Source: Clostridia bacterium (GTDB lineage Bacteria > Bacillota > Clostridia > Christensenellales > QALW01). Taken from it: 64,000 nt of DNA. This document shows, in pieces, positions 152-39,032 of this stretch. The notes under the pieces are model-generated. The model saw nothing but the letters and a program-made list of their open reading frames with translations. It made no database searches and was not told where the DNA came from. The stretch is from assembly GCA_045594045.1 (NCBI GenBank), contig JAZNXV010000034.1:1075-65074 (forward strand). The letters are read 5' to 3'. A program made the position numbers and the translations under genes. Position 1 is the first letter of the stretch. Every line of letters starts with the position of its first letter.

Positions 152-1951
152 TTATTTGTTTATAAGAGCGTTATATTGGCTCATATTAAGCTCATAATAA
201 ATGCCCTTTTTATCCATTAATTCTTGATGTGTTCCTTCTTCTGCAATACCCTTATGGGCGATGCACATAATTTTATCGGCGCGCTTTATTGTAGAAAGCC
301 TATGGGCAATAACGAAGCTGGTACGACCTTCTAATAGAGTGTCAAGAGCTTTTTGAATTAAAAGCTCTGTTTTTGTGTCAATGCTTGAGGTGGCTTCGTC
401 TAAGATAAGAACTTTCGGGTTGGCTAAAACTGCACGGGCAAAGGATAAAAGCTGCCTTTCGCCTGTAGAAAGCCCCGCGCCGCGTTCAGATACCACTGTG
501 TTATATTGCTTCGGCAGTGCTTCTATAAATTCAGCGGCATAAACCTGCTTTGCCGCGGCAATGCATTCTTCATCGGTGGCATCGGGTCTGCCGTAACGAA
601 TGTTATCCATTATTGTGCCGGAAAACACAAAGGAATCCTGCATCATAACACCAACTTGAGTACGCAACGAGCGGGTTGTGACGTTGCGAACGTCGTGACC
701 GTCAATCTTTATGCTGCCGGCGGTGACGTCGTAAAAACGCGAAAGCAAGTTAACAACGGTAGTTTTTCCTGCGCCGGTAGGACCAACAAGGGCAATCATT
801 TCGCCGGGAGCTACACTGAAGGAAACGTTCTCTAAAACGTTTGTTTCACCATCGTAGGAAAAAGAAACGTTTTCGTAGTCGATTTTTCCTTTTATACAAG
901 GAAGTTCATAGGCATCGGGAGCGTCTTTGATTTCTGCCTCGGTATCCATTGTTTCAAAGATGCGTTCAATATTACCCGTCGCTTCGCAGAATTGGTTAAA
1001 AATGCCTACAAAGGAAGAAATAGGTTGCCAGAATCTTGTCATATAGGCGCAAAACGCAGTTAAAGCACCTAAGGAGAGAACGCCTTGGTCAATATAACCT
1101 ATCGCTACGAAATATACGCATAAGGTACCTATTGTTGAAAGAATATCAACTACAGGGCCCAAGGTTGAGGCTGAAAACGCAAATTTATAATAAGGCTTAT
1201 TTGTTTCTGCGTCAAGGCGTTTAAGCTCAAACACGTTGGCTTCTTGTCTGTTAAAGGCTTGAGATACCATAACGCCCATTATATTTTCGTTTATGTATGC
1301 TGTGCGGTTACTTGATTTCGTAAGCACCGCGCGATAAAATTTTGTGATTAATTGGCGAAGAAGTATTGCAAAAACACATAACGGAATAAGTGCGGCAAAG
1401 CTTATAAGTGAAAGGGTAAGATTGGTTGTTAAAAGAATTACAACGATACTTACCAAGGTGAAAACGTCCACTATAAGCTGAATAAGCGATTCGGAAAGCA
1501 AGGTGGCAAGACTATCGATATAGCTTGTAACTCTTACCATAATTTTGCCTGCAGGGCGGTCGTCAAAATACTTAAAGGCGAGAGTTTGAATGTGTTCAAA
1601 CAGCTCCTTACGGATATCGTAAATTGAGCTGTGACCTAAATTGGTGATTATGTACATTCTCTTTGCAGAGAGAAAAACGTTTAGTAAAAGCAGCAGCGCA
1701 ATGGAGGCTACGACAATTAGAAGGGCGGGAATACTGTTTTCAAAGCTACCGCCGTCAGTTAGAACAGCATCAATAATCCACTGTGTAAGGCGAGGCCAAA
1801 CAAGTGAGACCAATACGTTTAGAATTAACAAACCAAGCCCTTTAAAAAAGAGCTTTTTATGGGGAAGCATATACTTAAAAAGCCGTTTTAAAATACTTGT
1901 ATTTAACCTTAAAACCTGCTTTTCGTCGTCGGAATATCTGTTACGAGCCAT
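152..1951 (-). CDS. ABC exporter, fused permease/ATPase (heterodimer partner 2)
   Basis: Motifs seen: Walker A GPTGAGKTT, signature LSTGERQ, Walker B LILDEATS and H-loop IAHRLST, with an N-terminal six-TM region. The start is trimmed to MARNRYSDDEK (ATG at 1951) behind GGGGGGTGG, 13 nt after the upstream stop. The ORF-track extension to 2125 overlaps the upstream gene. Confidence 0.9.
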   Translation of the reverse strand: MARNRYSDDEKQVLRLNTSILKRLFKYMLPHKKLFFKGLGLLILNVLVSLVWPRLTQWIIDAVLTDGGSFENSIPALLIVVASIALLLLLNVFLSAKRMYIITNLGHSSIYDIRKELFEHIQTLAFKYFDDRPAGKIMVRVTSYIDSLATLLSESLIQLIVDVFTLVSIVVILLTTNLTLSLISFAALIPLCVFAILLRQLITKFYRAVLTKSSNRTAYINENIMGVMVSQAFNRQEANVFELKRLDAETNKPYYKFAFSASTLGPVVDILSTIGTLCVYFVAIGYIDQGVLSLGALTAFCAYMTRFWQPISSFVGIFNQFCEATGNIERIFETMDTEAEIKDAPDAYELPCIKGKIDYENVSFSYDGETNVLENVSFSVAPGEMIALVGPTGAGKTTVVNLLSRFYDVTAGSIKIDGHDVRNVTTRSLRTQVGVMMQDSFVFSGTIMDNIRYGRPDATDEECIAAAKQVYAAEFIEALPKQYNTVVSERGAGLSTGERQLLSFARAVLANPKVLILDEATSSIDTKTELLIQKALDTLLEGRTSFVIAHRLSTIKRADKIMCIAHKGIAEEGTHQELMDKKGIYYELNMSQYNALINK

Positions 1952-1964
1952 AAATCCACCCCCC

Positions 1965-3758
1965 TTAAATTGAATTGAGCACAGTTGAATACTGCTCTTT
2001 ATATATGTCAAAATAATGACCCTTAAGGGAAACAAGCTCATCGTGAGTACCGCGTTCGATAATTTCGCCGTTCTTAAGCACAAGGATTTCGTCGCAGGCT
2101 TTAACGGAAGAAATTCTGTGGGCAATGATTATTTTGCTGTTGTGAGAAAAATCTGTTTTTAAAGATGAATACAAGGCCTCTTCAGTTTGCATATCGAGAG
2201 CGCTTGTGGCATCGTCAAAAATCAAAACGGGGGAATTGTTAAGCAGAGCGCGGGCGATAGAAATTCGCTGTTTTTGGCCGCCTGAAAGACCCATTCCTCG
2301 CTCGCCGATAATAGTGTCGTATTCATCGGGAAGTTTTTCGATAAACTCGCTCGCACAGGCGGTTTTTGCGCATTTTTTAACGTCTGCAATTGTCGCGTCG
2401 CACTTGCCGTAAGCGATGTTTTTTGCAATGGTATCAGAGAATAAAAATACGTCTTGAAAAACGGTTGAAAAGCAACTGCGCAGGGAGGTAAGGTCGAGGT
2501 CGCGCACGTCTGTTCCGTTTATGGAAACAGAGCCTTTCGTAACGTCAAAAAAGCGCATCAATATGTTTATAAGCATTGATTTTCCGCTTCCTGTTGTACC
2601 TACGATGCCGAGAGTTTTTCCTTGGGGCAGCTCAAAGGAAATATCCTTTAAAATTTGATTGTTTCTTATTTTTAAGCTTACGTTTTTAACGCTTATATTT
2701 ACGCTATTCGTATCTATTTTTTTTGCGTTTTTCTTGGTTGATATAATGGAATTTGTGTGTAAAAAAGTAAAGAGCTTGTTACCGCTTGTAACGGAACGCT
2801 GGATAGCATTTATCCAGTTATTTGCTTGCTCAAAAGGCGTCAATATAAAGGTAAGATAGCCGCTTAAAGCAACAAATTCGGCTAATGTAAGCGCATTGGT
2901 ACTCGAAGGATTTAAATTGCCGTTAATAACGAAAATCGCAGATATTGCCGTAATAAAAACGTTTGGCAAAATGCTTATTATACCTACGGGAATATAGTTC
3001 TTTGCCCATATTTTCATATAGTTTACGGAACGGTCCCTGAAGGCTTCGTTTTTCTTGGTGAATTTTTTGATTTCGGCATTTTCTTGGGCGTATGCCTTAA
3101 CTATGCGTATGCCGCTTATGTTTTCTTGAGTTATTGTGCTTAAAGCTGCGCTTGCATCGCGCACAAGGTGATAATGCTCGGCAAAAACCCTACTTATTTT
3201 CTTCGAAACGAATAACAGCGGAAGGGCAAAGGCATATGCAACAAACACAAGCACCGGATTCATTTGCCAAATCATAATGCTGGCAAAAATGAAGCTGAAC
3301 AGAGATTCAATAATAACCGGAATTGTGCCTGTAAAAAACATTTTTACCGTTTCGGAATCGCCGTTTATAACGGTTAAAATATTACCGGTGGAATCTTGCT
3401 GTAAAAAGCTTTGCGATTGCCAAAGCAATTTTGAAAAGGCGTCTTGTCTGAGCTTGCAAACCGCTTGTGTGGAATAATAGGTCATTATGTAATTGCGAAC
3501 TACCGAAAGTAGCTGCTTGATTAAAATTACACCCAGCCACGAAAACGCGATGTATAAAAATACGGACGCTTTATTATCGGCTGACCACAGCCAAAAACTA
3601 AAAGAAGTGCCGTCGCTGATAATCAAATTAATAATGTGTTTTGTAAATTGCGGCACCAGCATAGACAGCAATGCAATCAACACACCCATAAAAAGATATA
3701 GAACGATGACACTTATGTAAGGCTTAAAATAGGAAAACAAGCACTTCAATGCTTTCAT
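1965..3758 (-). CDS. ABC exporter, fused permease/ATPase (heterodimer partner 1)
   Basis: Motifs seen: GTTGSGKSMLINIL, LSGGQKQRISIARAL, LIFDDATSALD and IAHRISS, with an N-terminal TM domain. GAGGTG RBS precedes the start. Confidence 0.9.
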   Translation of the reverse strand: MKALKCLFSYFKPYISVIVLYLFMGVLIALLSMLVPQFTKHIINLIISDGTSFSFWLWSADNKASVFLYIAFSWLGVILIKQLLSVVRNYIMTYYSTQAVCKLRQDAFSKLLWQSQSFLQQDSTGNILTVINGDSETVKMFFTGTIPVIIESLFSFIFASIMIWQMNPVLVFVAYAFALPLLFVSKKISRVFAEHYHLVRDASAALSTITQENISGIRIVKAYAQENAEIKKFTKKNEAFRDRSVNYMKIWAKNYIPVGIISILPNVFITAISAIFVINGNLNPSSTNALTLAEFVALSGYLTFILTPFEQANNWINAIQRSVTSGNKLFTFLHTNSIISTKKNAKKIDTNSVNISVKNVSLKIRNNQILKDISFELPQGKTLGIVGTTGSGKSMLINILMRFFDVTKGSVSINGTDVRDLDLTSLRSCFSTVFQDVFLFSDTIAKNIAYGKCDATIADVKKCAKTACASEFIEKLPDEYDTIIGERGMGLSGGQKQRISIARALLNNSPVLIFDDATSALDMQTEEALYSSLKTDFSHNSKIIIAHRISSVKACDEILVLKNGEIIERGTHDELVSLKGHYFDIYKEQYSTVLNSI

Positions 3759-11149: not shown

Positions 11150-11790
11150 TGGAAAAGCTTAAAAATTTCGGCAATGACCTTAAATATGCATTCCACGTTA
11201 TTACTCACCCGCTTGACGGATTTTGGGATTTGAAGCACGAAAAGCGCGGCAGAAGCTATATCGCCGTTCTCTTCCTTGTGCTGTACGTTATTACTGACAT
11301 TTTAAATAAACAGTTTAATAACTATACGTTTAATGCTTTTAAGGTAACACCTGAGGATATTAACATTATAGGTACGTTCGTTTCGGTAGCACTTATAGTT
11401 GTTATTTGGGTTGCTGCCAACTGGGGTCTTACAACCTTGTTTGATGGCGAAGGCAGTATGAAGGACGTGTTTATTTACACGGGATATTCAATGCTTCCCT
11501 TAGTGCTTTCACAAATTATTTTAATTCCCCTTACAAACGTGCTTACGGTTAACGAAGCCGTTATCGTGTCTCTTATTTCTACAATCGGTATCGGTTGGAC
11601 CGCAATCCTTCTTTATACCGGTACTATGACTACTCACCAGTACACCGGAGGCAAAACCTTCATTACGTTATTGGCAATTCTTCTCGGTATGGTTATCATT
11701 GTTTTCTTGAGCGTGTTGTTCTTCTTCCTTGTTCAAGAAATTTGGAACTTTGGCTTTACCATTTATCGAGAGCTTGAGTTACGTAGGTAA
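11149..11790 (+). CDS. Yip1-domain-like polytopic membrane protein
   Basis: The 213-aa protein has five hydrophobic helices and an N-terminus (FHVITHPLDGFWDLKHEKRG) typical of bacterial YIP1-family proteins. Its start overlaps the upstream stop (TAATG). Confidence 0.6.
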   Translation: MEKLKNFGNDLKYAFHVITHPLDGFWDLKHEKRGRSYIAVLFLVLYVITDILNKQFNNYTFNAFKVTPEDINIIGTFVSVALIVVIWVAANWGLTTLFDGEGSMKDVFIYTGYSMLPLVLSQIILIPLTNVLTVNEAVIVSLISTIGIGWTAILLYTGTMTTHQYTGGKTFITLLAILLGMVIIVFLSVLFFFLVQEIWNFGFTIYRELELRR

Positions 11791-11800
11791 CGGAGGTGGA

Positions 11801-14509
11801 ATGAACATGAAAAAAAGAATTATTTCCGCCTTGTTAATACTTTTATTGCTTCTTCCTATTATGGTAATGTTTACCGGTTGTGCAACAGAAGTAGAAGAAG
11901 GCTATATTACTCCAACAAACAATGAACCTGATTATCAGTTCAGCGCTAATGCTCCCACCTTCGTTCGTGAGGACAAAGATAAGGATACTATCTTCACTTT
12001 AATTGAAGAAAATGATAAGTACGAGTTCTACTTTAGCTCGGAAATTCTTGAAATTGCTTTAAAGAGCAAGGAAACAGGTGAAATTTGGTATTCAAATCCT
12101 GCGCCCTCTGATAGAAATATCGGCATCAAGAGTGAAATGAGTAGCCAGGTTTCCTTGTTTTATTTAAACAAGAAGGACGGCAGCCAAAGCACTCTCGAAA
12201 GCTATCTTGACTGTATTTTAAATAATAATGAAGAGTTGGGTATTGAACAGTACCATGTTGTTAATCACAACGGTAATCTGCGAGTTATCTATGTTTTAGG
12301 TCAAATAAAGCCTGATTATATTATTCCCACTTGTATTGAAGGCTCAGTAGCCGAACAGTACGCGGCGGCAATGAAGGCTGATCCTAAGCATTCAAGCCAG
12401 GCAAGAGCTATCACCACGGGTAGTGTGTATGCAAAAATTACACCTAACGTATGGAGCACATATACTACCGATATACAAAACGAATATTTGCAAATTGCAC
12501 CTAACATGGGTCAGTTTATTGCTGAAGGAAAAACGGTTTATATCATAAAGGACCAAACAAAGCTTTACAACGCAGAGCGTATGCAAAAGCTTCAGGCAGC
12601 CTTTGTTGAGGTTATTGGTATGGACCTTGAAGCCCGCGACAAAATAAACGAAGAGTTCGGTGTAGAAATCGAACCTGCAAAGACCTTCTGGATTCCGGTT
12701 GACTACGAGCTTACGTCGGGCGGTCTTAGCGTAACAATTCCCAACGAAGAAATTAAGTACGATACAAACACCTTTGCTATCGCATCAATTAACCTGCTTC
12801 AATATTTTGGCTCCGCTTCAAAAAGCGAAGAAGGTTATATGTTTGTTCCCGATGGCTCAGGCGCAATTATTAATTTCAATAACGGAAAAACAAACATTTC
12901 CAAGGATATTCGCGTGCAGCTTTACGGCCTTGACGACGGACGTGAACTGTTAACAAGACCCTATAGAAACGAGCAGGCATATCTCCCCGTTTTCGGTATC
13001 AAAAAGGCAAACAGTGCGCTTTTCGGTATTATTGAAAGCGGTGATACAAATGCTACGATAGTTGCAGATATTGCAGGCAAAAACGTTACTGCAGTTGATC
13101 GCAACAGATGCTATACAAGCTTTAAAATGTCTGAATATGAAGAAATTCAGTTCAAGAGCGCCGGTAAGGTTTCTCGTATTTATCAGAACGAGATGAACTC
13201 GGCTGACCTCTCAATCACCTATTCAATTCTTGACGGTGAAAAGGCTAATTACAGCGGTATGGCGGAGTATTATAGAAATTACCTTATTGATAAGGGCGTT
13301 TTAAGCAAAAAGAACTTTAAGGATATTCCGTTTAATATCGAGCTTGTTGGTGCTTATGACCATAAAACTGCTTTCTTAGGTGTTGGCTATACAGAGATGA
13401 AGGCTATCACAACCTTCGACCAATGCCAAGAGCTTATTAAAAAGCTTGCAGATAAGGGCGTTAAGAATATTTCGATCAACTATAAGGGTTGGGCGAACAA
13501 CGGCTTAAGAAACAGCGTGTTTAACAAGGCTCACGTGCTTGATGCATTAGGCGGCAAAAACGGTTTAACCAATTTGCTTAATTATGCCGAAGGCTTGGGT
13601 GTAAACGTGTTCTTTGAAACAGAGCTTGCTCTTGTTTATAAAACGGAGCTGTTCGGCGGATACAATACGCTTACACAGGCTTCAAGACTTGTAACACGTG
13701 ATATTGCATATCATTATCAGTATATTGATAACTGGAATACGGCTTCACCCGATAATAAGGCTACGATAGCCGCTCCCTCAAATATTTATAATATTGATAG
13801 CGAAGATAACAGCAGAAGCTTCTTAACAGGTCTTGTAAACGATATAAACAACCTTAATATTAAGGCAGTAAGTCTTGGTAGCCTTGCAAACAATCTTCCG
13901 GGCAACTATAAGGTTGACGATTTCTATGATAGAGACAAAACAGCCAAAACTTATGCTGCCGTTGCAAAGAAATTCAGCGAAGACAAGATTGTTATGGGTA
14001 AGAGTGCTAATAACTATATGCTTGCCTACGTTGATGAAATCTTTGAAATCAGCAACATAAGCAGTAAGTTTAACCTTGCTGACCAATCAGTTCCCTTCTA
14101 TCAGATGGTAATTCATGGTTGCATTGAGTATTCCGGTGAGCCTATTAACCTTAACGGCGATACCCGCAGAACCTTCCTTCAGGCTGTTGAAGCAGGCTCC
14201 GGCTTATATTACCGTTGGTGCTATGCTCCAAACACCGAAGTTCAGGACCTTTGGTTTGAGGGTATGTATTCATTGAATTACGAGGCTTGGCTTGATGAAG
14301 CTATTGCTATGTACAATGAATATAATAATATGCTTTCGGATACCGCAGATGCTTTCCTTGTAAATCACGAGGCTGTTGCCGAAAATGTAAACAAGATTAC
14401 ATACAGTAACGGTGTTGAGGTTTATATCAACTATAACTCTTATGATTACACTGCGGCAGACGGCACGCTTGTTAAAGCAGAATCTTTTGCAAAGGGGGGG
14501 AATAATTAA
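11801..14509 (+). CDS. large (~900 aa) lipoprotein of unknown function (from memory, resembles DUF5696-type proteins)
   Basis: The lipobox reads MVMFTGC. The start is ATG 11801 or ATG 11807, both behind GGAGGTGG. The ORF-track start at 11729 overlaps the Yip1 gene. No catalytic motif is recognisable by eye. Confidence 0.7.
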   Translation: MNMKKRIISALLILLLLLPIMVMFTGCATEVEEGYITPTNNEPDYQFSANAPTFVREDKDKDTIFTLIEENDKYEFYFSSEILEIALKSKETGEIWYSNPAPSDRNIGIKSEMSSQVSLFYLNKKDGSQSTLESYLDCILNNNEELGIEQYHVVNHNGNLRVIYVLGQIKPDYIIPTCIEGSVAEQYAAAMKADPKHSSQARAITTGSVYAKITPNVWSTYTTDIQNEYLQIAPNMGQFIAEGKTVYIIKDQTKLYNAERMQKLQAAFVEVIGMDLEARDKINEEFGVEIEPAKTFWIPVDYELTSGGLSVTIPNEEIKYDTNTFAIASINLLQYFGSASKSEEGYMFVPDGSGAIINFNNGKTNISKDIRVQLYGLDDGRELLTRPYRNEQAYLPVFGIKKANSALFGIIESGDTNATIVADIAGKNVTAVDRNRCYTSFKMSEYEEIQFKSAGKVSRIYQNEMNSADLSITYSILDGEKANYSGMAEYYRNYLIDKGVLSKKNFKDIPFNIELVGAYDHKTAFLGVGYTEMKAITTFDQCQELIKKLADKGVKNISINYKGWANNGLRNSVFNKAHVLDALGGKNGLTNLLNYAEGLGVNVFFETELALVYKTELFGGYNTLTQASRLVTRDIAYHYQYIDNWNTASPDNKATIAAPSNIYNIDSEDNSRSFLTGLVNDINNLNIKAVSLGSLANNLPGNYKVDDFYDRDKTAKTYAAVAKKFSEDKIVMGKSANNYMLAYVDEIFEISNISSKFNLADQSVPFYQMVIHGCIEYSGEPINLNGDTRRTFLQAVEAGSGLYYRWCYAPNTEVQDLWFEGMYSLNYEAWLDEAIAMYNEYNNMLSDTADAFLVNHEAVAENVNKITYSNGVEVYINYNSYDYTAADGTLVKAESFAKGGNN

Positions 14510-16811: not shown

Positions 16812-16851
16812 TTTTATAAAAAAATACGGAGTTAACTTCCATTAACTCCGT
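16812..16851 (-). terminator. intrinsic terminator closing the RRE-RmlA-kinase operon
   Basis: On the minus strand the hairpin ACGGAGTTAA/TTAACTCCGT (16826-16851) is followed by ATTTTTTTAT. Confidence 0.8.
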
Positions 16852-16866
16852 AGGATAAAACATAGG

Positions 16867-17571
16867 TTATTGGTCCGCAGACATTACCTTGTGCGCTAAA
16901 ACGGCCGCAGCCTCGTTAGGAAGGCAGGTAAGGCGGTAAAAGGGGATAGAGGCGATTAAAGCATCAAGCTCGTTTAAAAGCGCGTTAGAACGCTCTAAAC
17001 CTGCTCTGCGCATAGTTTGCGACAGCATTACCTGCAGTATTTCCACCGGCGACGTTAAACGCTCAATGGTATTTGCTTCGCCACGTTCAATAAAGCATAT
17101 TGCCTGCAGTGGAACCTTTGCGTTAACGTTTTTTGAGCTTGAACCGCTCCAAGGAGTACCGTAAACGTGATATTTCCCGTCTGTAAACCGCAACGCCGGC
17201 TTATCGTCATTAATAACGAATGCCTCAGGAAACACCTCAGTCCAAAGCGTAGTATGCGTAGATTTACCTACGCCCGATTCAGCAGAAAAGAGATAAGCCT
17301 TATTTTCGTAGGCTACAGCCGAAGCGTGCAGAACAAATCCGCCCTTTTCTAAAAGCTTTGCGGCAAATAGTTTGCTGTAAATATTGTATTGCACGTTTGA
17401 CGTGTTTAAATCGGGACGTTTTTCTAACTGCTTTAAAATAAAGGGCTCGCAATCCTCAAGAACAATATCGGGATTGTTGCAGTAGGGAACCAAATATTTT
17501 TCAGCGTGCTCTTGGGTGCGCCCAAAACAGTTCATATTAACTATGTAATCGGCAATAGAATATGATTTCAT
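16867..17571 (-). CDS. HPr-kinase-C-like P-loop protein (candidate peptide/precursor kinase)
   Basis: The motif HASAVAYENKAYLFSAESGVGKSTHTTLW resembles the HPr kinase/lasso-kinase P-loop (SGxGKS). Its ATG directly abuts the TAA of the upstream RmlA gene. Confidence 0.6.
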   Translation of the reverse strand: MKSYSIADYIVNMNCFGRTQEHAEKYLVPYCNNPDIVLEDCEPFILKQLEKRPDLNTSNVQYNIYSKLFAAKLLEKGGFVLHASAVAYENKAYLFSAESGVGKSTHTTLWTEVFPEAFVINDDKPALRFTDGKYHVYGTPWSGSSSKNVNAKVPLQAICFIERGEANTIERLTSPVEILQVMLSQTMRRAGLERSNALLNELDALIASIPFYRLTCLPNEAAAVLAHKVMSADQ

Positions 17572-18462
17572 TTAAAACTTTTTATTTCTTTCGGCAAGAC
17601 TGATAATGTATTTGCCGTAGTCAGTTGTTTTTGTGTCTTCGCCTAAAGCTCTGAGCTGCTCGGTAGTAATGAAGCCTCTGCGCCATGCAATTTCTTCAAT
17701 ACAGGAGATATAGAAGCCCTGGAGAGACTGTACTGCCTGCACGTAAGAAGAAGCGGTAAGCATACCGTCAGGAGTGCCCGTATCAAGCCAAGCCATACCT
17801 CTGCCCATCAAAATAACGTTAAGGTCCTTGTTTTTTAAATATTCGTTATTAACTGCGGTAATTTCAATTTCGCCGCGGGCAGAAGGCTTAACATTCTTTG
17901 CTATTTCAATTACGCGGTTATCATAGAAATATAAACCCGGTACGGCAAAATTGCTTTTGGGATTTTCGGGCTTTTCTTCAATGGAAATAACCTTGTGGTT
18001 TTCGTCAAATTCAACAACGCCGAAGGCTCTTGGGTCGGAAACGGGATAGCCGAAAATTGTAGCACCTGTTTCCACGGCTTTTGCGCGGAAAAGAAGTTGT
18101 GAGAAATTTTGACCGTAAAAAACGTTGTCGCCTAAAATAAGGCAAACGTTGTCATCACCTATAAAATCTTCACCGATAATAAAAGCATCGGCTAATCCGC
18201 GGGGAGTGTCCTGCACGGCATAAGAAATAGAAATGCCTAAATGCGAGCCGTCACCCAACAATGCGCGGTAAAGGGGTGTGTCGTTAGGTGTTGAAATAAT
18301 AAGTACCTCGTCAATACCTGCGAGTAAAAGCACAGATAAGGGGTAGTAAATAAGAGGCTTATCATAAATAGGCAATAATTGCTTCGATACAACCTTAGTC
18401 ATAGGATAAAGGCGAGTGCCTTTACCACCGGCAAGAATAATACCTTTTGTTTTTTTTGTCAT
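17572..18462 (-). CDS. rmlA: glucose-1-phosphate thymidylyltransferase (RmlA/RfbA type)
   Basis: N-terminus [38 protein letters not shown] and an RmlA-like C-terminus [15 protein letters not shown]. The start is trimmed to ATG 18462 behind GGAGGA. Confidence 0.85.
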
Positions 18463-18501
18463 TTTTTCTTCCTCCATATAAATTCGTTAAAACAGTAATT
18501 A

Positions 18502-18762
18502 TTATTCAAAAACGTCTATAGAGTTGAGTGTGCGCAGAAAATCGTCGGTATCAGCCTCGGCAATAGCACGGTCGATTTCATATTCGTTTGAAAGAGCAGT
18601 AATAACCTCTTCACGCGTTGCGCCCTTTACTAAAAGGTTCCATATAAAAACACCGGACTCATTCAAGGTAAGCATACCCGTAAAATCAGATTCGTCGTTT
18701 ACGGATATAACCGTATTGATGCCGGCAATGCTTTTTAGAATAAAGCACTCCTTAATTTTCAT
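18502..18762 (-). CDS. PqqD-family protein (RiPP recognition element-like)
   Basis: The 86-aa protein contains LNESGVFIWNLLVKGATREEVITALSNEYEIDRAIAEADTDDFLRTLNSIDV, the typical PqqD/RRE pattern. AAGGAG RBS. Confidence 0.75.
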   Translation of the reverse strand: MKIKECFILKSIAGINTVISVNDESDFTGMLTLNESGVFIWNLLVKGATREEVITALSNEYEIDRAIAEADTDDFLRTLNSIDVFE

Positions 18763-18791: not shown

Positions 18792-18821
18792 ATTATACAA
18801 TAAATATGCAATAAATGTCAA
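18792..18821 (-). promoter_or_regulatory. sigma-A-type promoter for the RRE-RmlA-kinase operon
   Basis: Minus strand reads TTGACA (18821-18816), an 18-nt spacer, then TATAAT (18797-18792). Confidence 0.6.
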
Positions 18822-18866: not shown

Positions 18867-18895
18867 TTGACAAGAAGATATGCTGGTGATATAAT
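18867..18895 (+). promoter_or_regulatory. sigma-A-type promoter for the small peptide gene
   Basis: TTGACA (18867-72), a 17-nt spacer, then TGaTATAAT (18887-95), a consensus extended -10. Confidence 0.7.
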
Positions 18896-18945
18896 TAGTG
18901 CGTATAGTAATATTGGCAATTTGTTTTGAGGAGATTGTGATATAT

Positions 18946-19068
18946 ATGAAGAAGATTTATTCAAAGCCAGAGGTTGAAGTTGTTGAACTTTTAAACGGTG
19001 CTGTATTTACTGATTTTGAAGACGGCGGCGACTTTGATGGTCCTGACGTTGTTGAGTCAGGAGCTTGA
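18946..19068 (+). CDS. 40-aa acidic peptide, candidate RiPP precursor (not in the supplied ORF track)
   Basis: Hand translation: MKKIYSKPEVEVVELLNGAVFTDFEDGGDFDGPDVVESGA*. GAGGAG lies 12 nt upstream. The gene has its own promoter and two downstream terminators. It carries a YxxPxV leader-like motif. Confidence 0.6.
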   Translation: MKKIYSKPEVEVVELLNGAVFTDFEDGGDFDGPDVVESGA

Positions 19069-19093: not shown

Positions 19094-19125
19094 AGCCGAC
19101 AAGAAATTTTGTCGGCTTTGTGTTT
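19094..19125 (+). terminator. intrinsic terminator after the peptide gene
   Basis: AGCCGACAA (19094-102) pairs with TTGTCGGCT (19109-17), followed by TTGTGTTTTT. Confidence 0.8.
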
Positions 19126-19131
19126 TTGGAG

Positions 19132-19162
19132 AAAAAAGCGGCTTTTCTTAAGCCGCTTTTTT
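19132..19162. terminator. bidirectional intrinsic terminator
   Basis: AAAAAAGCGGCTT pairs with AAGCCGCTTTTTT. The A-run and T-run let it serve both the peptide gene (+) and the pseudouridine synthase gene (-). Confidence 0.8.
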
Positions 19163-30783: not shown

Positions 30784-32691
30784 ATGATTGGTGCAGGCTT
30801 CGGCGGACCTATGGGACCGCCATCAAACAAAATTAACGATAAAAATAAAGAGCCGTTGCCTAAAAACATAAAAGAAGTTCCAAGATATTTAAAGAACACC
30901 TTTAAATCGTTTTTTTCGCGGCTTTTTTATATTTTTAAGCTTGTGTGGGAAACAAGCCCTTGGATTTTAATCGTTATGATGATAATAGCCCTTTTAAACG
31001 GTGTGCTGCCCGTTTTCGGCACGTACATTACTGCTCGGATAATTAACGAGCTGTCTGTAACGGTTAAAGGGGTTGACGTTGCTGCAAGCACGATTATTTC
31101 CTTGTTTGTGGTACAGTTCGTGTATCTTTTCTTAACAAGAGTTACGGCAAACGTAAATAACGTTTTATCTAATTTGTCCGGTGAAATGGTAACTAACCAT
31201 ATTCGCCGTAAAATTATGAAAAAAACAAAGGACATAGATATTGCGTGCTTCGACTTGCCCGATTTTTACGAAAAGCTTGAAAATGCCAATAGGGAAGCAG
31301 GTATGCGTCCCATACAAATATTAAACAGCTCGTTTAACGTAATAAGCACTACGGTAAGTATGATAAGCTTTATTGCTATTTTAGTTTCCGTAAGCTTTTG
31401 GGCGCCGCTTTTGGTGGGATTGTTGGCTTTGCCGTCAACAATAGTCAGCTTTGTGTTCAGAAAAAAGCGTGTTAACTATATGCGCAGGCGTTCTAAGGCA
31501 AGGCATCAAATGAACTATTATTCTTCTACCATAGTAAACAAGGATATGGTAAAGGAAATGCGCCTTTTAGGCTTGAACGAGGATTTTGAAAACAGATACG
31601 ATAAAGTATTTAATGATTATTTCAAAGGCTTAAAGAATATAATATTATCGGAGGGCTTCTGGAATATAACGTTAGGCCTGTTGAGGATAGTTGCAAGCAG
31701 TGTTCTGTTTTATTTTATTGCAACATTAGTTCTTCAAAAACAGATACAAATAGGCGATTATTCCTTCTATACAGGCGCTTTGACTGCTATCGGCGAAGGT
31801 ATAAGCACGCTTATAGTAGGCACGTCTGCAGTTTATGAGGGTACACTGTTTATTGATAACCTTATTTCGTTTATGAAGCAAAAAAGCAATATCGTGCCTG
31901 TGGGCGAGCCGATTATGCCTAAAACAAACACAGGACATACCATTGAGTTTAAGAACGTAAGCTTTAAATATCCGGGTACTGATAAATACGTGCTTAAGGA
32001 TTTTAATTTTACGTTAAACAGCGGCGAAACCGTTGCACTTGTGGGCCTTAACGGTGCAGGTAAAACAACGATTATTAAATTACTTACAAGGCTTTATGAC
32101 GTAACGGACGGCGTTGTGCTCCTTGACGGAATTGACATTCGTTCATATGACGTGCGCGCACTTTACGATTTGTTCGGAATAGTATTTCAGGATTTCGGCA
32201 GATATGCGGTAACGGTTGAGGAAAATATCAGGTTTGGCAGAATAAATAAAAACGCAGATTTTTCAACAGTTATCGATTCTGCAGAAAAAAGTGACGCCGA
32301 AGAGTACATAAACAAGTTACCTAGAGGATTCGAAACACCTCTTATGCGATTCTTTGAAGACGACGGTATTGAACTTTCAACGGGTCAATGGCAAAAGCTT
32401 GCGGTGGCAAGAGCCTTTTACGCCGATTCCGATATTTTGATTTTAGACGAGCCTACTGCTTCCTTGGACGCGTTGGCAGAGCAGGCAATTTTTAGGCAGT
32501 TTGATTTGCTTCGTAAGGGAAAAACAACTTTGTTTGTATCTCATAGGCTTTCAAGCGCGGTAATGGCAGACAGAATTGTTGTAGTAAAGAACGGAAGCTT
32601 GCTTGAGGAAGGTACTCACAAGGAATTAATGGCAAAGAAGGGTGAATATTTCACTATGTTTGAGGCTCAAGCGGAAAAATACAGAGAATAA
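30784..32691 (+). CDS. ABC exporter, fused permease/ATPase
   Basis: Motifs GLNGAGKTTIIKLL, LSTGQWQKLAVARAF and LILDEPTASLD, with a six-TM N-terminal domain and a Gly/Pro-rich N-terminal tail. Confidence 0.85.
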   Translation: MIGAGFGGPMGPPSNKINDKNKEPLPKNIKEVPRYLKNTFKSFFSRLFYIFKLVWETSPWILIVMMIIALLNGVLPVFGTYITARIINELSVTVKGVDVAASTIISLFVVQFVYLFLTRVTANVNNVLSNLSGEMVTNHIRRKIMKKTKDIDIACFDLPDFYEKLENANREAGMRPIQILNSSFNVISTTVSMISFIAILVSVSFWAPLLVGLLALPSTIVSFVFRKKRVNYMRRRSKARHQMNYYSSTIVNKDMVKEMRLLGLNEDFENRYDKVFNDYFKGLKNIILSEGFWNITLGLLRIVASSVLFYFIATLVLQKQIQIGDYSFYTGALTAIGEGISTLIVGTSAVYEGTLFIDNLISFMKQKSNIVPVGEPIMPKTNTGHTIEFKNVSFKYPGTDKYVLKDFNFTLNSGETVALVGLNGAGKTTIIKLLTRLYDVTDGVVLLDGIDIRSYDVRALYDLFGIVFQDFGRYAVTVEENIRFGRINKNADFSTVIDSAEKSDAEEYINKLPRGFETPLMRFFEDDGIELSTGQWQKLAVARAFYADSDILILDEPTASLDALAEQAIFRQFDLLRKGKTTLFVSHRLSSAVMADRIVVVKNGSLLEEGTHKELMAKKGEYFTMFEAQAEKYRE

Positions 32692-33353: not shown

Positions 33354-34043
33354 ATGAAGAACAATGGCGTTATAAAGCAGTTTACTATGCTTTGTACGCC
33401 TTTTCTTTTATATATAATAGCCGTGGGACTCTTATGTATGTTTGTGTTTTCAACGTTTATCGAGCCTTCTGCTGTTTGGAGTGTTGTTATGCGCGGCGGT
33501 GATGTTACGTATCAGGAAAGCGGTATTGATCATAATATCGATTACGTTCAGCCAAAGCCGATTGTTGACGACATAAAAGAAGAGACGTACTATGATATTA
33601 ACGAATTCCCGACAATTAAATGGGGCAAAAAATGGGCAACCATTTCAGTTGCTTACTTAGGTGCAAAGGATATACCTGTTTATGAGGGCGATTCTAAAAA
33701 AATGTTGGATTACGGGGTAGCTCATTACTTTTTTTCAAGAATGCCGGGACAAGGTGGTAACTGCGTTTTATCCTTTCACGTAAACAGACAACGCGAGCTG
33801 TATTATTTGGAGGATCTGCCTATAGGCGAGCTGATAGAAATAAATACGTCCTACGGAAAATACGTTTACGAGGTTTCCTCTAAGGATGTTTTTGAAGCAA
33901 ATGATGAAAGCTATATAGTTCGCGATGGCGAAGATATGCTTACAATTTATACCTGTTATCCCAAACAGGGTCCGTACCGTAAAAAGCGCATAGCAATTAC
34001 TGCGATTCTTGATAAAGACCTTAGTGACCCGTCGTGGAGGTAA
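33354..34043 (+). CDS. sortase-family transpeptidase
   Basis: N-terminal TM anchor, His region VLSFHVNR, catalytic Cys in LTIYTCYP and a downstream Arg (RKKRIAITA). Confidence 0.8.
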   Translation: MKNNGVIKQFTMLCTPFLLYIIAVGLLCMFVFSTFIEPSAVWSVVMRGGDVTYQESGIDHNIDYVQPKPIVDDIKEETYYDINEFPTIKWGKKWATISVAYLGAKDIPVYEGDSKKMLDYGVAHYFFSRMPGQGGNCVLSFHVNRQRELYYLEDLPIGELIEINTSYGKYVYEVSSKDVFEANDESYIVRDGEDMLTIYTCYPKQGPYRKKRIAITAILDKDLSDPSWR

Positions 34044-34045
34044 GT

Positions 34046-34978
34046 ATGAAAGAAAAAATCTATTACAAGCCGCGACTGTGGAAAAAATTTGTGCGTTTTA
34101 TTTTAGACGTGCTGGCATCAGTGCTCGTTATAAGCTCGGTACTGTGCTCGTTGGTATCTAATTTCTTAATAAATCCCGAAGCATACAGAGATTGCATCAT
34201 TACAAGCGAATTCGACAGTGAAGTTATTGCAAGTGTCAGAGATTCGGTGCGTGCATCAAGCTCGGTAGCAGAATTGAATGCAGATGCAGTTGTTGCTGCG
34301 GTGGGTGAAGATAGGCTTATTGCTTATTCACACGAATATACAATAGCTTTCCTTGATTCTCTTTTTAACGGAACTGATTTTGAATTTAAGCAATTTGAAG
34401 CCAACGGACTAAAGGCAGAGATTGTTCGCCAGATGGATAATTATGATGAGGTTGACGTTGTTACAGATAAAGAAATTGACGAATTGTACGAATACACCTT
34501 GAAAAATATCCGCACAGCCCTTACATACATTCCTAATTTAATACTTTCGCTTACACCGAAGCTTGCAGGTGTATTTGGGGTGCTTAAGAATCTTGTTAAG
34601 ATGGAAATTCCTTTATACCTGATAAGTTTTGCGGTAATTACATGCAACTTTTTGTTTGGCGGAAAAAGGCATGTGTTTGATGTGCTCTTCGGCACGGTAA
34701 GTGGCATTTGGGTTGCTGCTTGCACGGTTGAGGTGCCGCTTGCTATGGCGGCGATATATAATATTCCTTCAAGGCTTGCTTTAAGTAAAACCACTTTTTA
34801 TTATTTAATAAAAGGTATGACGGATACACTTATAACAAAATCAGCTACTGTGCTTGGTATAATGTTTTCTGTTATAACGATGGCACTTATTGCCGTATGC
34901 ATAGTATGCGTAAAGGTAAAAATGAAAAGAAAAAATACCGAGCAATCTTTTTATAGAGCTGAATTTGATGAAAATTAA
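34046..34978 (+). CDS. hypothetical polytopic membrane protein
   Basis: ATG at 34046 follows GGAGG, 2 nt after the sortase stop. Several TM helices flank a soluble loop. Confidence 0.6.
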   Translation: MKEKIYYKPRLWKKFVRFILDVLASVLVISSVLCSLVSNFLINPEAYRDCIITSEFDSEVIASVRDSVRASSSVAELNADAVVAAVGEDRLIAYSHEYTIAFLDSLFNGTDFEFKQFEANGLKAEIVRQMDNYDEVDVVTDKEIDELYEYTLKNIRTALTYIPNLILSLTPKLAGVFGVLKNLVKMEIPLYLISFAVITCNFLFGGKRHVFDVLFGTVSGIWVAACTVEVPLAMAAIYNIPSRLALSKTTFYYLIKGMTDTLITKSATVLGIMFSVITMALIAVCIVCVKVKMKRKNTEQSFYRAEFDEN

Positions 34979-34986
34979 AAAAGTTG

Positions 34987-35015
34987 TTGACAAAAACATT
35001 TAACAGTAGTATTAT
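34987..35015 (+). promoter_or_regulatory. sigma-A-type promoter of infC-rpmI-rplT
   Basis: TTGACA (34987-92), a 17-nt spacer, then TATTAT (35010-15). Confidence 0.55.
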
Positions 35016-35019
35016 AATC

Positions 35020-35128
35020 AAGCAAAGTAGGAGCTGCCCGCTTCTCACCTGTCAGTAATTGCGCTGCACACGGTTATTTTTAGGCTGATATTTATGCGGG
35101 TAGTTTGTGCTGCCCGCATTATTTTTTT
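35020..35128 (+). promoter_or_regulatory. L20-leader-like attenuator upstream of infC
   Basis: The terminator ATGCGGG (35094-100) / CCCGCAT (35113-19) plus TATTTTTTT lies just before the infC RBS. An upstream GCTGCCCGC copy (35052-61) offers alternative pairing to GCGGG. The position matches Firmicute L20 autoregulation. Confidence 0.6.
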
Positions 35129-35141
35129 GGAGGTGTTCAAT

Positions 35142-35645
35142 ATTACAGAATTAGCGATTAATGATGAAATAAGAGAAAAAGAGGTTCGTCTTATTAGTGC
35201 CGAAGGTGCACAGCTTGGTATTGTACCTATTGAGCAAGCTATGCGTATGGCTGATCAGGAGAATTTAGACCTTTGTTTGATTTCACCTAAAGCTGTTCCG
35301 CCGGTTTGCAAGATTATGGATTACGGTAAGTACCGCTTTGAAACTCAAAAGAGAGAAAAGGAAAACCGTAAGAACCAAAAGGTTATTGCTTTGCACGAAA
35401 TACAGCTTTCTGCAACCATTGAAAAGCACGATATGGAAGTTAAAGCAAAGAAGGCACGTGAGTTTATAAAGGCCGGCGACAAGGTTAAGGTTTCTATCAG
35501 ATTCCGCGCTCGCCAAATTACTCATCCGGAAATCGGTCATCAAATTATGTCGCTTTTTTGCGAAATGTTGAAGGATGAAGCCAAAGTTGAGAAGAAGCCC
35601 GCGTTAGAGGGAAGAAATCTCATAATGATAATGTCTGCATTATAA
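35142..35645 (+). CDS. infC: translation initiation factor IF-3
   Basis: ITELAINDEIREKEVRLISAEGAQLGIV... The start is assigned to ATT at 35142, 6 nt after GGAGGTG. The ORF-track ATG at 35094 lies inside the leader terminator hairpin. Confidence 0.85.
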   Translation: MTELAINDEIREKEVRLISAEGAQLGIVPIEQAMRMADQENLDLCLISPKAVPPVCKIMDYGKYRFETQKREKENRKNQKVIALHEIQLSATIEKHDMEVKAKKAREFIKAGDKVKVSIRFRARQITHPEIGHQIMSLFCEMLKDEAKVEKKPALEGRNLIMIMSAL

Positions 35646-35667
35646 ATCTTTTAGGAGGTAAAATACT

Positions 35668-35865
35668 ATGCCAAAAATGAAAACCCACAGAGGTGCGGCA
35701 AAAAGATTTGCTCTTACCGCATCAGGAAAAATTAAGAGAGGTAAGGCTTACAGAAGCCATATCTTAACAAAGAAGTCAACAAAGAGAAAAAGAAATTTGC
35801 GTCAGGGCGGCTATATTGCCGAGTGCGAAGCAAAGAACGTTCGCAACCTTATCCCTTACAAGTAA
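35668..35865 (+). CDS. rpmI: 50S ribosomal protein L35
   Basis: [14 protein letters not shown]... and an AGGAGG RBS. Confidence 0.95.
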
Positions 35866-35884
35866 GCTTTAGGAGGAAAAAGAA

Positions 35885-36235
35885 ATGAGAGTTAAAAGAG
35901 CTTTAAATACAAAAAAGAATCATAAGAAAGTCCTTAAGCTTGCAAAAGGCTATTTTGGTGCAAAGAGCAGACAGTTCCGTGTAGCAAACCAAGCTGTAAT
36001 GAAATCACAAGCTTACGCTTATGTTGGCCGTAAGCTTAAGAAGAGAGATTTCCGTGCTCTTTGGATTACACGTATCAACGCTGCAGCAAGAATGAACGGT
36101 CTTAACTACAGCAAGCTTATTAACGGTCTTAAGAAGGCAGGCATTGAAATTAACCGTAAAATGCTTGCGGAATTAGCTGTTTATAACGCTGAAGCTTTTG
36201 CACAGCTTGCCGAAGTTGCTAAAAAGAACATTTAA
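35885..36235 (+). CDS. rplT: 50S ribosomal protein L20
   Basis: [29 protein letters not shown]... Confidence 0.95.
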
Positions 36236-36244
36236 TTAAAAGTT

Positions 36245-36276
36245 GTGCGCAATTAAATATTGCGCACTTTTTATTT
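36245..36276 (+). terminator. intrinsic terminator
   Basis: GTGCGCAAT pairs with ATTGCGCAC, followed by TTTTTATTT. Confidence 0.85.
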
Positions 36277-36311
36277 AAGAAAAAAATGTTATATTGCACT
36301 AAGGTGGAAAT

Positions 36312-37073
36312 ATGCAAAAAATAACAAGTACGTCTAACGAAAGAATTAAATTCTTAAAAAGCTTAAAAAATAAAAAGGCGAGAGAAGAAAGCGGTACTTA
36401 TCTGTTGGAAGGTAAGCGCGCAGTGCTTGATGCGCTAAATCATAACGTCAGGTTTAAGTGTCTTGTTGTTCAAGAAGGATATGAGCTTGATATAAAAGTT
36501 GAGTGTGACGTTATTTGCGTTCCGCGCCATATTATAGAAGCGCTTTCGTCTTGCTCAAGTCCCGAGGGCATAATTGCTCAGGCTATTATGAGCGATTTGA
36601 GCTTTGATGCAGAAAAATTACAGGGGTTAACGGTCTTTGTTGACCGACTGCAAGATGCAGGTAATTTAGGCACAATTATCCGTACCGCAGACGCGTTAGG
36701 TGCAGGGGCGGTGGTGCTCTCAAAGGACTGCGTTGAACTTTACAACCCCAAAACAATCAGGGCTACAATGAGCTCTGTTTTCAACATTCCCATAATGGTG
36801 GTAGAAGACAGTATTAAGGCTTTAGGGAAAATGAAAGCCCAAGGCTACAAAATATATTCTGCCGCATTAAACGGCAAGGATTTTTCTTTAGTAGGCGGTA
36901 TTGACAGTAATAAAAGCTGTATCATAATAGGTAACGAGGGCAACGGAATTTGCAAAGAAATTCTTGATTTTTCAGATGAAATAGTTACCTTGCAAATGCG
37001 CGGTGGTGCAGAATCGCTTAACGCGGGAATTGCCGCAGGTATCCTTATTTACAGTTTTATTTTTCAAAAATAG
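36312..37073 (+). CDS. TrmH/SpoU-family RNA 2'-O-methyltransferase (YsgA/RlmB-like)
   Basis: SpoU motifs [10 protein letters not shown] and [14 protein letters not shown]. It sits after rplT, as in Bacillus. Confidence 0.85.
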
Positions 37074-37084
37074 GAGGAAATATT

Positions 37085-37831
37085 ATGTCAGGACATTCCA
37101 AATGGGCAAATATTAAAAATAAAAAAGCAAAAACAGACGCTCAAAAGGGTAAGATTTTTACAAAAATAGGTAGAGAATTGGCTGTTGCCGTTAAATCTGG
37201 CGGACCTGATCCTACAGTTAACTCAAAGCTTGCTGACGTAATTGCAAAAGCAAAGGCAAACAATATGCCTAACGATACCATTACCCGTAGCATCAAAAAG
37301 GCTTCGGGCGAGGGTGACGGTGCAAACTACGAAGAGCTTACATACGAAGGATATGGTCCTGCGGGCGTAGCAGTAATCGTTGAAATAGTTACCGATAACC
37401 GTAACCGTACCGCAGGTGAAATTCGTCATATCTTTGATAAAGCAGGCGGTTCAATGGGCGCAACAGGCTGTGTTTCATGGATGTTTGATAAAAAAGGCGT
37501 TATCGTTATTGAAAACGACGGCAAAATTGACGAAGAAACACTTATGATGAGCGCACTTGATGCAGGCGCAGAGGATTTTATTCCCGAAGGTGACACTTTT
37601 GAAATCTATACTGCACCTGAAGATTTTTCTGCTGTCAGACAAGCGCTTGAAAATGAAGGTTATGAGTTCCTTGAAGCGCAAACGGATATGGTGCCCCAAA
37701 ATACTGCGGCAGTATCAGGCGATGACGTGCTTAAAAAGATTTATTGGATGCTTGACCAATTTGATGAGCATGACGACGTTCAAAACGTTTATCATAATGC
37801 GGAGCTTCCTGAAGAAGACGAGGAAGAGTAA
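37085..37831 (+). CDS. yebC: YebC/PmpR-family DNA-binding regulator
   Basis: [27 protein letters not shown]... Confidence 0.9.
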
Positions 37832-37986
37832 TTTACAAAAGAATTTTTGCTTTTCTTATTAATTTAGTTTACAGTGCTTCGAACATAAAATCTGTATAAT
37901 TAAATTTTGTAACGGCAAAATAAGGGCAGAGGAAGACAAAAAAGTTTACCTCTGCCTATTTTATAGGAGTATGTTTATTTAACACA

Positions 37987-38928: not shown

Positions 38929-38970
38929 ATTGTATAAATTCTCTTAAAAAGTACATAATTAACATAAAGA

Positions 38971-39004: not shown

Positions 39005-39032
39005 GAAAAGTTAATTGAAAAGGGGAATTGTT

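Follow-up and report, generated by a model that had tools for sequence, protein, structure and literature searches.

Linear polyphosphorylated peptides (LPPs) have been known only since 2026, chiefly from Bacilli, and the lppAKBSDN cluster of Paenibacillus alginolyticus is the closest described system for the locus analysed here (Popov et al., Nat Commun 2026; PMC13381572). In that system, the HprK-like kinase LppK adds up to four phosphates to a serine at core position 3 and refuses threonine and tyrosine, and the SipW-like peptidase LppS cleaves after Thr-1 only when the leader is presented by the RiPP recognition element (RRE) LppB (PMC13381572). In LppB, Asp70 holds the leader Tyr, Asn33 fixes the Pro kink and Phe74 divides the two pockets, while the structure of the final product and its function are still unknown (PMC13381572). 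The study centred on Bacilli, and its Supplementary Data 1 also contains SpI peptidases from Clostridia (SSN cluster 4), for which the RREs were marked "other" and not analysed and the precursors were given as "ND" (PMC13381572). HprK-like kinases with a His, a Lys and two Asp (PadeK, ThcoK, PsmK) also tailor lasso peptides of the paeninodin and pseudomycoidin type, acting on the linear precursor with the assistance of B1/RRE proteins, and the His-Lys-Asp-Asp motif is essential in these lasso-tailoring kinases (PMC9266682).

Here, we analysed a 64-kb stretch of clostridial DNA (the window), in which a 40-codon gene had been flagged in an initial annotation as a possible lasso peptide precursor. 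The locus consists of the gene for this peptide and of genes for a PqqD-type protein, the glucose-1-phosphate thymidylyltransferase RmlA and an HprK-like kinase, with the precursor gene lying divergently and carrying its own promoter (Table 1). The rmlA gene is placed between the RRE and kinase genes, its stop codon abutting the kinase start codon, and the flanks of the operon are housekeeping genes (Gin, a pseudouridine synthase, an RNA methyltransferase and IleRS).

Table 1. Features of the peptide gene and the divergent operon (positions are those of the window)
Feature	Position	Strand	Evidence
Terminator closing the three-gene operon	16825..16852	-	12-pair stem and T-run
HprK-like P-loop kinase, 234 aa (PF27840 "ScmC" family; LppK-like)	16867..17571	-	PF27840 in precomputed annotations
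Glucose-1-phosphate thymidylyltransferase RmlA, 301 aa	17572..18477	-	TIGR01207, 460.7 bits vs cutoff 360.65
Discrete RiPP recognition element, PqqD family, 86 aa	18502..18762	-	PF05402, 3e-15
Divergent promoter of the PqqD-RmlA-kinase operon	18792..18821	-	12/12 consensus match
Peptide-gene promoter, TTGACA, 17 nt, TATAAT, extended TG	18867..18895	+	12/12 sigma-70 consensus match
Shine-Dalgarno sequence GAGGAG	18928..18933	+	12 nt to ATG, read directly
Precursor-type peptide gene, 40 codons (lppA-like)	18946..19068	+	Translation, leave-one-out leader HMM, family alignment
Leader, about residues 1-22	18946-19011	+	Y5-x-x-P8-E-V-E-V and T22
Acidic tail, residues 23-40	19012-19065	+	F24 at the family Ser column; S38 the sole tail Ser
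Intrinsic terminator of the peptide transcript	19094..19127	+	Hairpin 19094-19117 and T-run; -17.8 kcal/mol, z -5.6
Bidirectional hairpin, T-runs on both sides	~19132..19162	.	-17.9 kcal/mol (+), -16.9 kcal/mol (-)

The product of the peptide gene reads exactly MKKIYSKPEVEVVELLNGAVFTDFEDGGDFDGPDVVESGA, in full agreement with the translation made by hand in the initial annotation. T22 is the sole Thr of the peptide, and the 17-residue core that had been delimited has the composition given for it, with six Asp/Glu and neither Lys, Arg nor Cys. The dedicated consensus promoter and the GAGGAG element were also found as described. Although a spacing of 12 nt between this element and the ATG is rather long, the start codon is supported by all family members beginning with MKK-x-Y. 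Two consecutive terminators had been claimed as well, and both hairpins do exist on the plus strand; the second, however, is equally good on the minus strand and has T-runs on both sides, and is therefore not a dedicated terminator of the peptide transcript. It provides the peptide transcript with backup termination and likely also ends the convergent pseudouridine-synthase gene (stop at 19172); in relatives, a hairpin is found immediately 3' of the same pseudouridine-synthase gene. No Rfam family scored above threshold at the peptide locus, where only sub-threshold, terminator-like matches were obtained.

Whether the frame belongs to a precursor family was assessed with a leader HMM trained on 21 related peptides, the window peptide itself being left out. 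Applied to all 911 small ORFs in the window, this model gave a single significant match, the window peptide (E 1.1e-5, 20.8 bits), and the runner-up had E 4.6. The frame is thus a real, separately transcribed precursor-type gene and more than a chance ORF, as the initial annotation had proposed.

The family itself was drawn from 80 genome loci fetched with the kinase, in which the precursors are small same-strand ORFs directly upstream of the kinase gene; a profile search (E ≤ 10) yielded 168 related predicted proteins that have neither a name nor a Pfam domain. The 133 unique related peptides share the pattern [Y/F]xxPE-h-E-h..F..[D/E]hh[A/T]xS, followed by a variable, acidic and nearly Cys-free tail with a median charge of -5. 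Counted from the aromatic residue, conservation over these 133 peptides is 100% for P4, 92% for E5, 95% for F11, 92% for [D/E]15, 82% for [A/T]18 and 62% for S20. About 38% of the family thus have no Ser in the S20 column, while all 133 carry at least one Ser beyond position 18. In the alignment, T22 of the window peptide falls on the [A/T] column that ends the leader, and a G-D-F-D motif in the tail lines up without gaps with that of P0129 (MKKKYIAPEIEIQQFEVEDIIALSDGLGDFDETGDFD) and similar precursors. The peptide differs from the family pattern in having L at F11, A at D15 and F at S20, and as these are three of the most conserved positions outside the RRE-binding motif, it may be a poor substrate or none at all.

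The sole match of a peptide-only search in 5.8 billion proteins was the peptide itself, no Pfam or NCBIfam model matched it, and a degenerate-DNA pattern of the leader matched 119 metagenome contigs, none of which held a window-like tail or a close homologue; with no close homologue of the peptide, purifying selection on the frame cannot be shown. Many peptides matching the leader pattern, of the type ending in LLAGS, lie in contexts without kinase or RRE genes, where the ten neighbours scanned were GH115, BspA-type LRR or DUF6377 proteins or gave nothing, and these contexts are therefore uninformative for the window locus. Family peptides distant from any kinase or RRE gene also exist as orphans (L206-L208). 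The usual order of the family loci is precursor, HprK-like kinase (K), PqqD (B), SpI-like Peptidase_S24/S26 (S), ABC exporter (D) and PF14907 nucleotidyltransferase (N), as seen in the Acetivibrio cellulolyticus cluster.

The leader had been suggested to carry a YxxPxL-type motif, and Y5-S-K-P8-E-V10 does match what discrete PqqD-type RREs bind; a YxxPx[V/L] motif of this kind is one of the features by which LPP systems are recognized. The 86-aa PqqD-family protein has the corresponding residues, as N34, W41, Y61, D71 and F75 align with N33, W40, Y60, D70 and F74 of LppB. It therefore has the three residues typical of LPP RREs (Asp for binding Tyr, Asn for fixing Pro and Phe for dividing the pockets), and it retains those by which LppB and lasso B1 proteins secure Tyr and Pro in their crystal structures. 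Among solved structures its best match was the lasso B1 protein TbiB1 (2.7e-7), compared to 0.06 for LppB (9x8z_B). In phmmer comparisons it was closest to the "other" RREs found beside clostridial SpI peptidases (2e-19 to 1e-14), while values of 1e-7 to 2e-4 were obtained with the RREs of Bacilli LPP systems and about 7e-8 with lasso RREs. It is weakly similar to LppB, no closer to the Bacilli LPP RREs than to lasso RREs, and falls outside the Bacilli LPP clade. Leader and RRE also co-vary: a leader Tyr is accompanied by an Asp at the D71 position in five of six loci, and a leader Phe by Cys, Ser, Ser or Phe in four of four (only loci with both partners known; one-sided Fisher p ~0.024, calculated by hand). 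The window pair, Y5 and D71, conforms to this co-variation.

An HprK-like kinase adjoining the RRE is another recognized feature of LPP systems, and it is present at the window locus. The 234-aa protein had no match in the Pfam release that we scanned, and it scored 1.3e-8 (34.5 bits, cutoff 125) with TIGR04249 (ScmC) and 0.0066 (15.6 bits, cutoff 200) with TIGR04352 (HprK-related kinase A). Around 4,000 homologues were found (E ≤ 0.001, clusters at 90% identity), nearly all from Clostridia; PF27840, a new Pfam domain, is present in them, in some cases with a fused Peptidase_S24/S26 domain. With the kinase of the A. cellulolyticus cluster, the window kinase shares 43-44% identity. A sequence profile of the family had no match among solved structures, and the kinase was placed by fold comparison only, using an AlphaFold2 model built from 49 homologues (pLDDT 94.3, pTM 0.90). 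Foldseek returned 64 PDB matches at E ≤ 0.001, and all of the 50 listed were either ATP-dependent PEP carboxykinase or HprK/P. PEP carboxykinase and HPr kinase/phosphorylase are two branches of one fold. Residues H82, K103, D122 and D123 are invariant in the 49 homologues and, judged by residue order, would correspond to the essential His-Lys-Asp-Asp motif of the lasso-tailoring kinases.

Other genes of the usual family locus were then sought in the window. No ORF in the 64 kb matched an HMM of 39 family peptidases, which covers the SipW-like SpI leader peptidase (LppS), and a family-built HMM found no PF14907 nucleotidyltransferase (LppN) in the same 64 kb. ABC exporters are encoded at 152-3758 and 30784-32691, but they lie at least 12 kb away and are unlinked to the operon. 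RmlA was considered as a stand-in for LppN, but homology between the two was rejected, since RmlA qualifies as a true equivalog of TIGR01207 and was not matched by the HMM based on PF14907.

The surroundings of the operon could be compared with eight syntenic loci from related gut MAGs. All eight keep PqqD-RmlA-kinase behind a consensus promoter, with TTGACA and TATAAT ahead of the PqqD gene as in the window, while the intergenic gap is 15-302 nt, compared to 412 nt in the window. No peptide gene or remnant of one was detected in these relatives by six-frame reading, blastn or tblastn. A conserved frame at the equivalent position of operon-bearing relatives, which the initial annotation had named as a check on its gene call, is thus absent from the eight loci; the gene call is instead rescued by homologous peptides lying beside homologous kinase and RRE genes elsewhere. 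It also follows that the operon does not need the peptide gene.

Among the syntenic genomes, median amino acid identity was 89% for the pseudouridine synthase, 88% for RmlA (85-98%), 56% for PqqD and 55% for the kinase, showing a much faster in-place divergence of the RRE and the kinase than of RmlA. Where an intact RRE-kinase pair evolves fast and has no precursor next to it, its target must be encoded elsewhere, and taken together with the orphan family peptides, this makes the B-RmlA-K operon look like a trans-acting module. In the genome of the window, it looks as if one precursor-type gene has landed next to that module.

The place of RmlA in the operon can be read in two ways. Genes for dTDP-sugars have been joined to such systems twice independently, in the B-RmlA-K clade and in a further locus (L069), where rmlA-B-D-C lie directly upstream of N-B-a-K-a. 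This association, fixed in one clade and recurring once independently, is suggestive only; RmlA may supply a dTDP-sugar. Alternatively, RmlA may be a mere housekeeping gene within the operon, since it is conserved as strongly as the housekeeping genes flanking it.

Taken together, these results suggest that the peptide is probably the precursor of an LPP-like, linear phosphorylated RiPP system of gut or rumen Clostridia, and not a lasso precursor. In the mechanism we propose, Y5-S-K-P8-E-V-E-V of the leader would lie as a β-strand in the cleft of the 86-aa RRE, where the Tyr hydroxyl would bond to Asp71 and Asn34 would fix the Pro kink. The RRE would thereby present the acidic tail to the HprK-like kinase of the divergent operon, and the kinase would move one or more phosphates onto a Ser. 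That the kinase might act on a tail Ser had been suggested before, and it appears to be the most plausible chemistry here; as Phe occupies the usual acceptor position, S38, third from the C-terminus, is the only candidate acceptor. With no cyclase acting, the product would stay linear. Removal of the leader and export, if any, would depend on genes elsewhere, given that the locus has no peptidase, exporter or PF14907 protein. The interleaved RmlA may supply a dTDP-sugar for a further, phospho-linked modification.

The main rival explanation is that the peptide is expressed and bound by the RRE but not phosphorylated, being a degenerate or repurposed precursor whose acceptor Ser was lost. It would then be a decoy or regulator, competing for the RRE-kinase pair with precursors from other parts of the genome, or a relic in the course of being lost. 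The Phe in the column that is Ser in 62% of the family is encoded by TTT, one transition away from the Ser codon TCT, and the replacements at F11 and [D/E]15 point in the same direction. So does the presence of an intact RRE and kinase without a peptide gene in the eight syntenic relatives, and the orphan family peptides far from kinases indicate that acting in trans is nothing unusual for such peptides. However, the family members that lack the column Ser have a later one, as the window peptide does in S38, a perfect promoter and terminator speak against decay, and no decoy precursor is known in the family. We consider this explanation unlikely, although it is the strongest of the competitors.

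A wider reading, in which several such elements are combined, is that PqqD-RmlA-kinase is a trans-acting module in the core genome of a gut lineage of Clostridia that makes a phospho-sugar linear product, the peptide being a newly recruited substrate or a regulatory ligand. The RRE and the kinase would then diverge approximately 4-fold faster than rmlA as a consequence of co-evolution with precursors scattered in the genome, many of them located immediately behind genes of large secreted proteins. A dTDP-sugar from RmlA would extend the phosphoserine to a phospho-sugar, e.g., phospho-rhamnose, and either the acceptor would have moved to the near-C-terminal Ser or the peptide would regulate the module as an RRE ligand that cannot be phosphorylated. 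This reading is rather improbable, somewhat more so than the decoy or relic.

It is also conceivable that the frame is a chance ORF, carried by a small non-coding RNA or by DNA inserted between the genes, with the function lying in the RNA or in the promoter-terminator pair. The segment is unique to the window genome among the syntenic relatives, the whole peptide has no homologue in the 5.8 billion proteins searched, and the Shine-Dalgarno spacing is long. Against this stand the significance and uniqueness of the leader match within the window, the position of the ORF next to the one RRE gene of the window, the in-register G-D-F-D of the core and the failure of all Rfam families to reach threshold, and we regard a chance ORF as very unlikely.

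The lasso identity put forward in the initial annotation requires enzymes that were looked for directly. We scanned 37 ORFs of the window against Pfam, a set that takes in each ORF of 150 aa or more between 4167 and 34043 plus seven larger ones located past 49 kb, and found no Asn-synthase-like lasso cyclase among them; AsnA, at 57123-58130, is an aspartate-ammonia ligase unrelated to lasso cyclases. A transglutaminase-like B2 protein was present neither in the operon nor among the ORFs of at least 150 aa at 4167-34043, so that its absence extends to ~15 kb from the locus. Outside the scan were 13 ORFs of at least 150 aa at 34034-48702 (154-324 aa), two short ones at 48724-49272 and 51187-51819, and just three of the ORFs with 430 aa or more, namely a pair of ABC exporters (152-3758) and a DUF5696-type protein (11729-14509). 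The unscanned ORFs at 34034-51819 are too short for a cyclase, while a B2-sized protein is possible there. Nor was a recurrent cyclase-sized protein seen in approximately 80 related loci, where the 44 unlabelled ORFs with lengths of 480-760 aa fell into 37 unrelated groups, the largest with five members, and Asn_synthase was not among the 25 strongest Pfam families of the ORFs in this size range.

A YxxPxV leader together with a discrete PqqD-type RRE is common to lasso systems, the best structural match of the RRE is a lasso B1 protein, and HprK-like kinases do tailor lasso peptides of the paeninodin type. A lasso precursor would be expected to have Thr at leader position -2, Gly/Ala/Ser/Cys as first core residue and Asp/Glu at core positions 7-9; in the window peptide, T22 is present and Asp is available at several positions, and the core would start with Phe (or Asp), which is atypical of lasso peptides. 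T22, which had been suggested as the conserved Thr at -2, sits on the family [A/T] column, corresponding to the Thr at -1 of the signal peptidase-type cleavage site in the characterized Bacilli system, and for the isopeptide ring that had been envisaged there is no enzyme among the scanned ORFs. Moreover, a terminator ends the operon right behind the kinase gene, and the related peptides lie in LPP-type clusters with a signal peptidase-type leader peptidase instead of B2. With no cyclase or B2 among the scanned ORFs and no recurrent cyclase-sized protein, a lasso precursor, cut by B2 after residue 23 and closed through a core Asp, is unsupported and extremely improbable, and a YxxP leader beside a PqqD gene is evidently insufficient to call a lasso peptide.

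The window locus is, then, most likely a reduced clostridial form of an LPP-type system with an atypical precursor. It belongs to a large sister family in anaerobic gut and rumen Clostridia, with ~4,000 kinase homologues and at least 133 distinct precursors, and shows that an RRE-kinase pair can persist without peptidase, exporter or nucleotidyltransferase and has twice been joined to dTDP-sugar genes. With only four genes (peptide, RRE, RmlA and kinase), it offers a tractable case in which to ask what the kinase needs of its substrate and whether sugar nucleotides are a missing ingredient of these pathways.

Compared with known systems, the window kinase carries the PF27840 "ScmC" domain and scores far below both the ScmC and the HprK-related kinase A cutoffs. 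The systems of TIGR04249 and TIGR04352 also pair a kinase-like protein with a PqqD-family protein. Both the SynChlorMet and the HprK-related kinase A cassettes are uncharacterized and come from other phyla, and the SynChlorMet cassette has the radical SAM/SPASM partners ScmE and ScmF, whereas the window operon has no radical SAM gene. Lasso peptides of the paeninodin and pseudomycoidin type resemble the window peptide in their acidic cores and in a Ser near the C-terminus, which is the acceptor in those systems. There, however, the acceptor is the very last residue, whereas Ser38 is followed by Gly-Ala, and maturation proceeds by B2 cleavage and then a cyclase, neither of which was found among the scanned window ORFs. 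In pseudomycoidin, hexoses are added to the phosphoserine, which would fit the link to RmlA, although PsmN is a PF14907-type protein with a fold unrelated to that of RmlA.

The LPP system of P. alginolyticus differs from the window locus in several respects. The window has neither an SpI-like peptidase nor a PF14907 protein in its 64 kb, its operon is without a linked exporter, and RmlA is present instead; the precursor gene is divergent, with its own promoter, and the RRE groups with the "other" clostridial RREs and not with the Bacilli LPP clade. The spacing P-x9-F-x-[T/A] of the published LPP leader, YxxPxVLxHQxIxFETxxS, corresponds to P-x6-F...[A/T]-x-S in the clostridial family; in the window peptide, from which the family Phe and Ser are missing, it is P8-x12-F21-T22 followed by D-F-E. 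The acceptor Ser at core position 3 of LPPs also contrasts with S38, which is position 16 of the 18-residue tail. Nevertheless, the usual order of the clostridial family, precursor-K-B-S-D-N, is that of lppAKBSDN, and the window locus has in common with LPP clusters a small precursor with an N-terminal YxxPxV motif, a T/A at the leader end and a variable tail, a discrete PqqD-type RRE with matching Tyr- and Pro-binding residues, an HprK-like kinase and, as far as its ORFs were scanned, no macrolactam cyclase.

We found that the leader motif of the precursor peptides co-varied with one position of the RRE, the discrete PqqD-family recognition protein, in the column corresponding to D71 of the window protein (loci compared: L003, L014, L041, L044, L053, L069, L071, L072, and L075). 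Motifs starting with Tyr were paired with Asp (once His) at this position, which in LppB, the RRE of the linear polyphosphorylated peptide (LPP) clusters, hydrogen-bonds the Tyr, whereas the residue there was Cys, Ser, or Phe when the motif began with Phe. Such co-variation between aligned sequences supports the view that the leader would touch the RRE directly.

When positions 16867-18762 of the window were compared with the syntenic relatives (L001, L002, and L007-L012), PqqD and the kinase were just 37 to 88% identical, with medians of 56% and 55%, respectively. In the same set, identities were 84 to 98% for rmlA, which lies between the two genes, and for the flanking pseudouridine synthase. 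The RRE-kinase pair is thus diverging rapidly in place, around a conserved rmlA. Locus L069 represents a second, independent association of dTDP-rhamnose genes with the kinase-RRE-precursor system; here, a full rmlA-rmlB-rmlD-rmlC set is located immediately upstream of the genes of this system and on their strand, and these run in the order PF14907, PqqD, first precursor, kinase, second precursor, and ABC-2 transporter.

At the majority of the related loci, the precursor gene starts 9 to 45 nt past the stop codon of a large gene (446 to 1905 aa). Many of the encoded proteins have an N-terminal signal peptide, Pfam domains in them were few or none (Flg_new_2, Beta_helix), and four have in common a C-terminal motif of the form ..RG[F/Y]V[I/V][Y/I]... 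and then ..T[V/I]Y[S/T].. or something closely similar. No link between big secreted proteins and precursor peptides was found in the available parts of the LPP paper (Popov et al. 2026, PMC13381572). At three loci (L206-L208), a family peptide, directly 3' of a gene whose product is 353 to 3454 aa long, had no kinase or RRE inside 6 kb. Such isolated peptides imply that modification of precursors in trans is possible.

Many small ORFs of the type MKKxYxKPE[I/V/M]E[I/V/M]...LLAGS or ...LLAAS were also observed on rumen and gut metagenome contigs (L087-L205; L095, L163, and L112 are examples), with the same Tyr-to-Ser spacing as the family peptides. No kinase or RRE gene was found beside them on the contig stretches examined, and ten neighboring proteins scanned had GH115, BspA-type LRR, DUF6377, or chitobiase-type domains, or no match.

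Coordinates of features at the related loci
Feature	Locus	Positions
Large gene with adjoining precursor	L003	2094-4694
Large gene with adjoining precursor	L014	3503-5707
Large gene with adjoining precursor	L020	2837-5710
Large gene with adjoining precursor	L070	2622-5645
Large gene with adjoining precursor	L028	29-5746
Large gene with adjoining precursor	L041	529-5703
Large gene with adjoining precursor	L063	386-5704
Large gene with adjoining precursor	L206	2806-5982
Family peptide far from kinase/RRE	L206	6001-6129
Family peptide far from kinase/RRE	L207	6001-6129
Family peptide far from kinase/RRE	L208	6001-6129
LLAGS/LLAAS-type ORF	L095	4610-4789
LLAGS/LLAAS-type ORF	L163	2980-3120
LLAGS/LLAAS-type ORF	L112	4987-5151
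rml set with adjoining RRE-kinase cluster	L069	829-8252
Kinase/signal-peptidase-like fusion	L005	5001-6137
Kinase/signal-peptidase-like fusion	L006	4232-5368
Wzz/AAA_31 type protein (plus four related ORFs at other loci)	L036	3060-4691

The kinase domain was fused to a signal-peptidase-like domain in one protein at L005, L006, L027, L032, and L047. In L005 and L006, the fusion gene adjoins dnaE amid housekeeping genes, and no RRE or precursor was detected nearby. Outside the cluster genes, the only recurrent large neighbor of the kinase loci was a chain-length-determinant protein of the Wzz/AAA_31 type; this echoes the capsular-polysaccharide setting reported for the LPP clusters of Bacilli.
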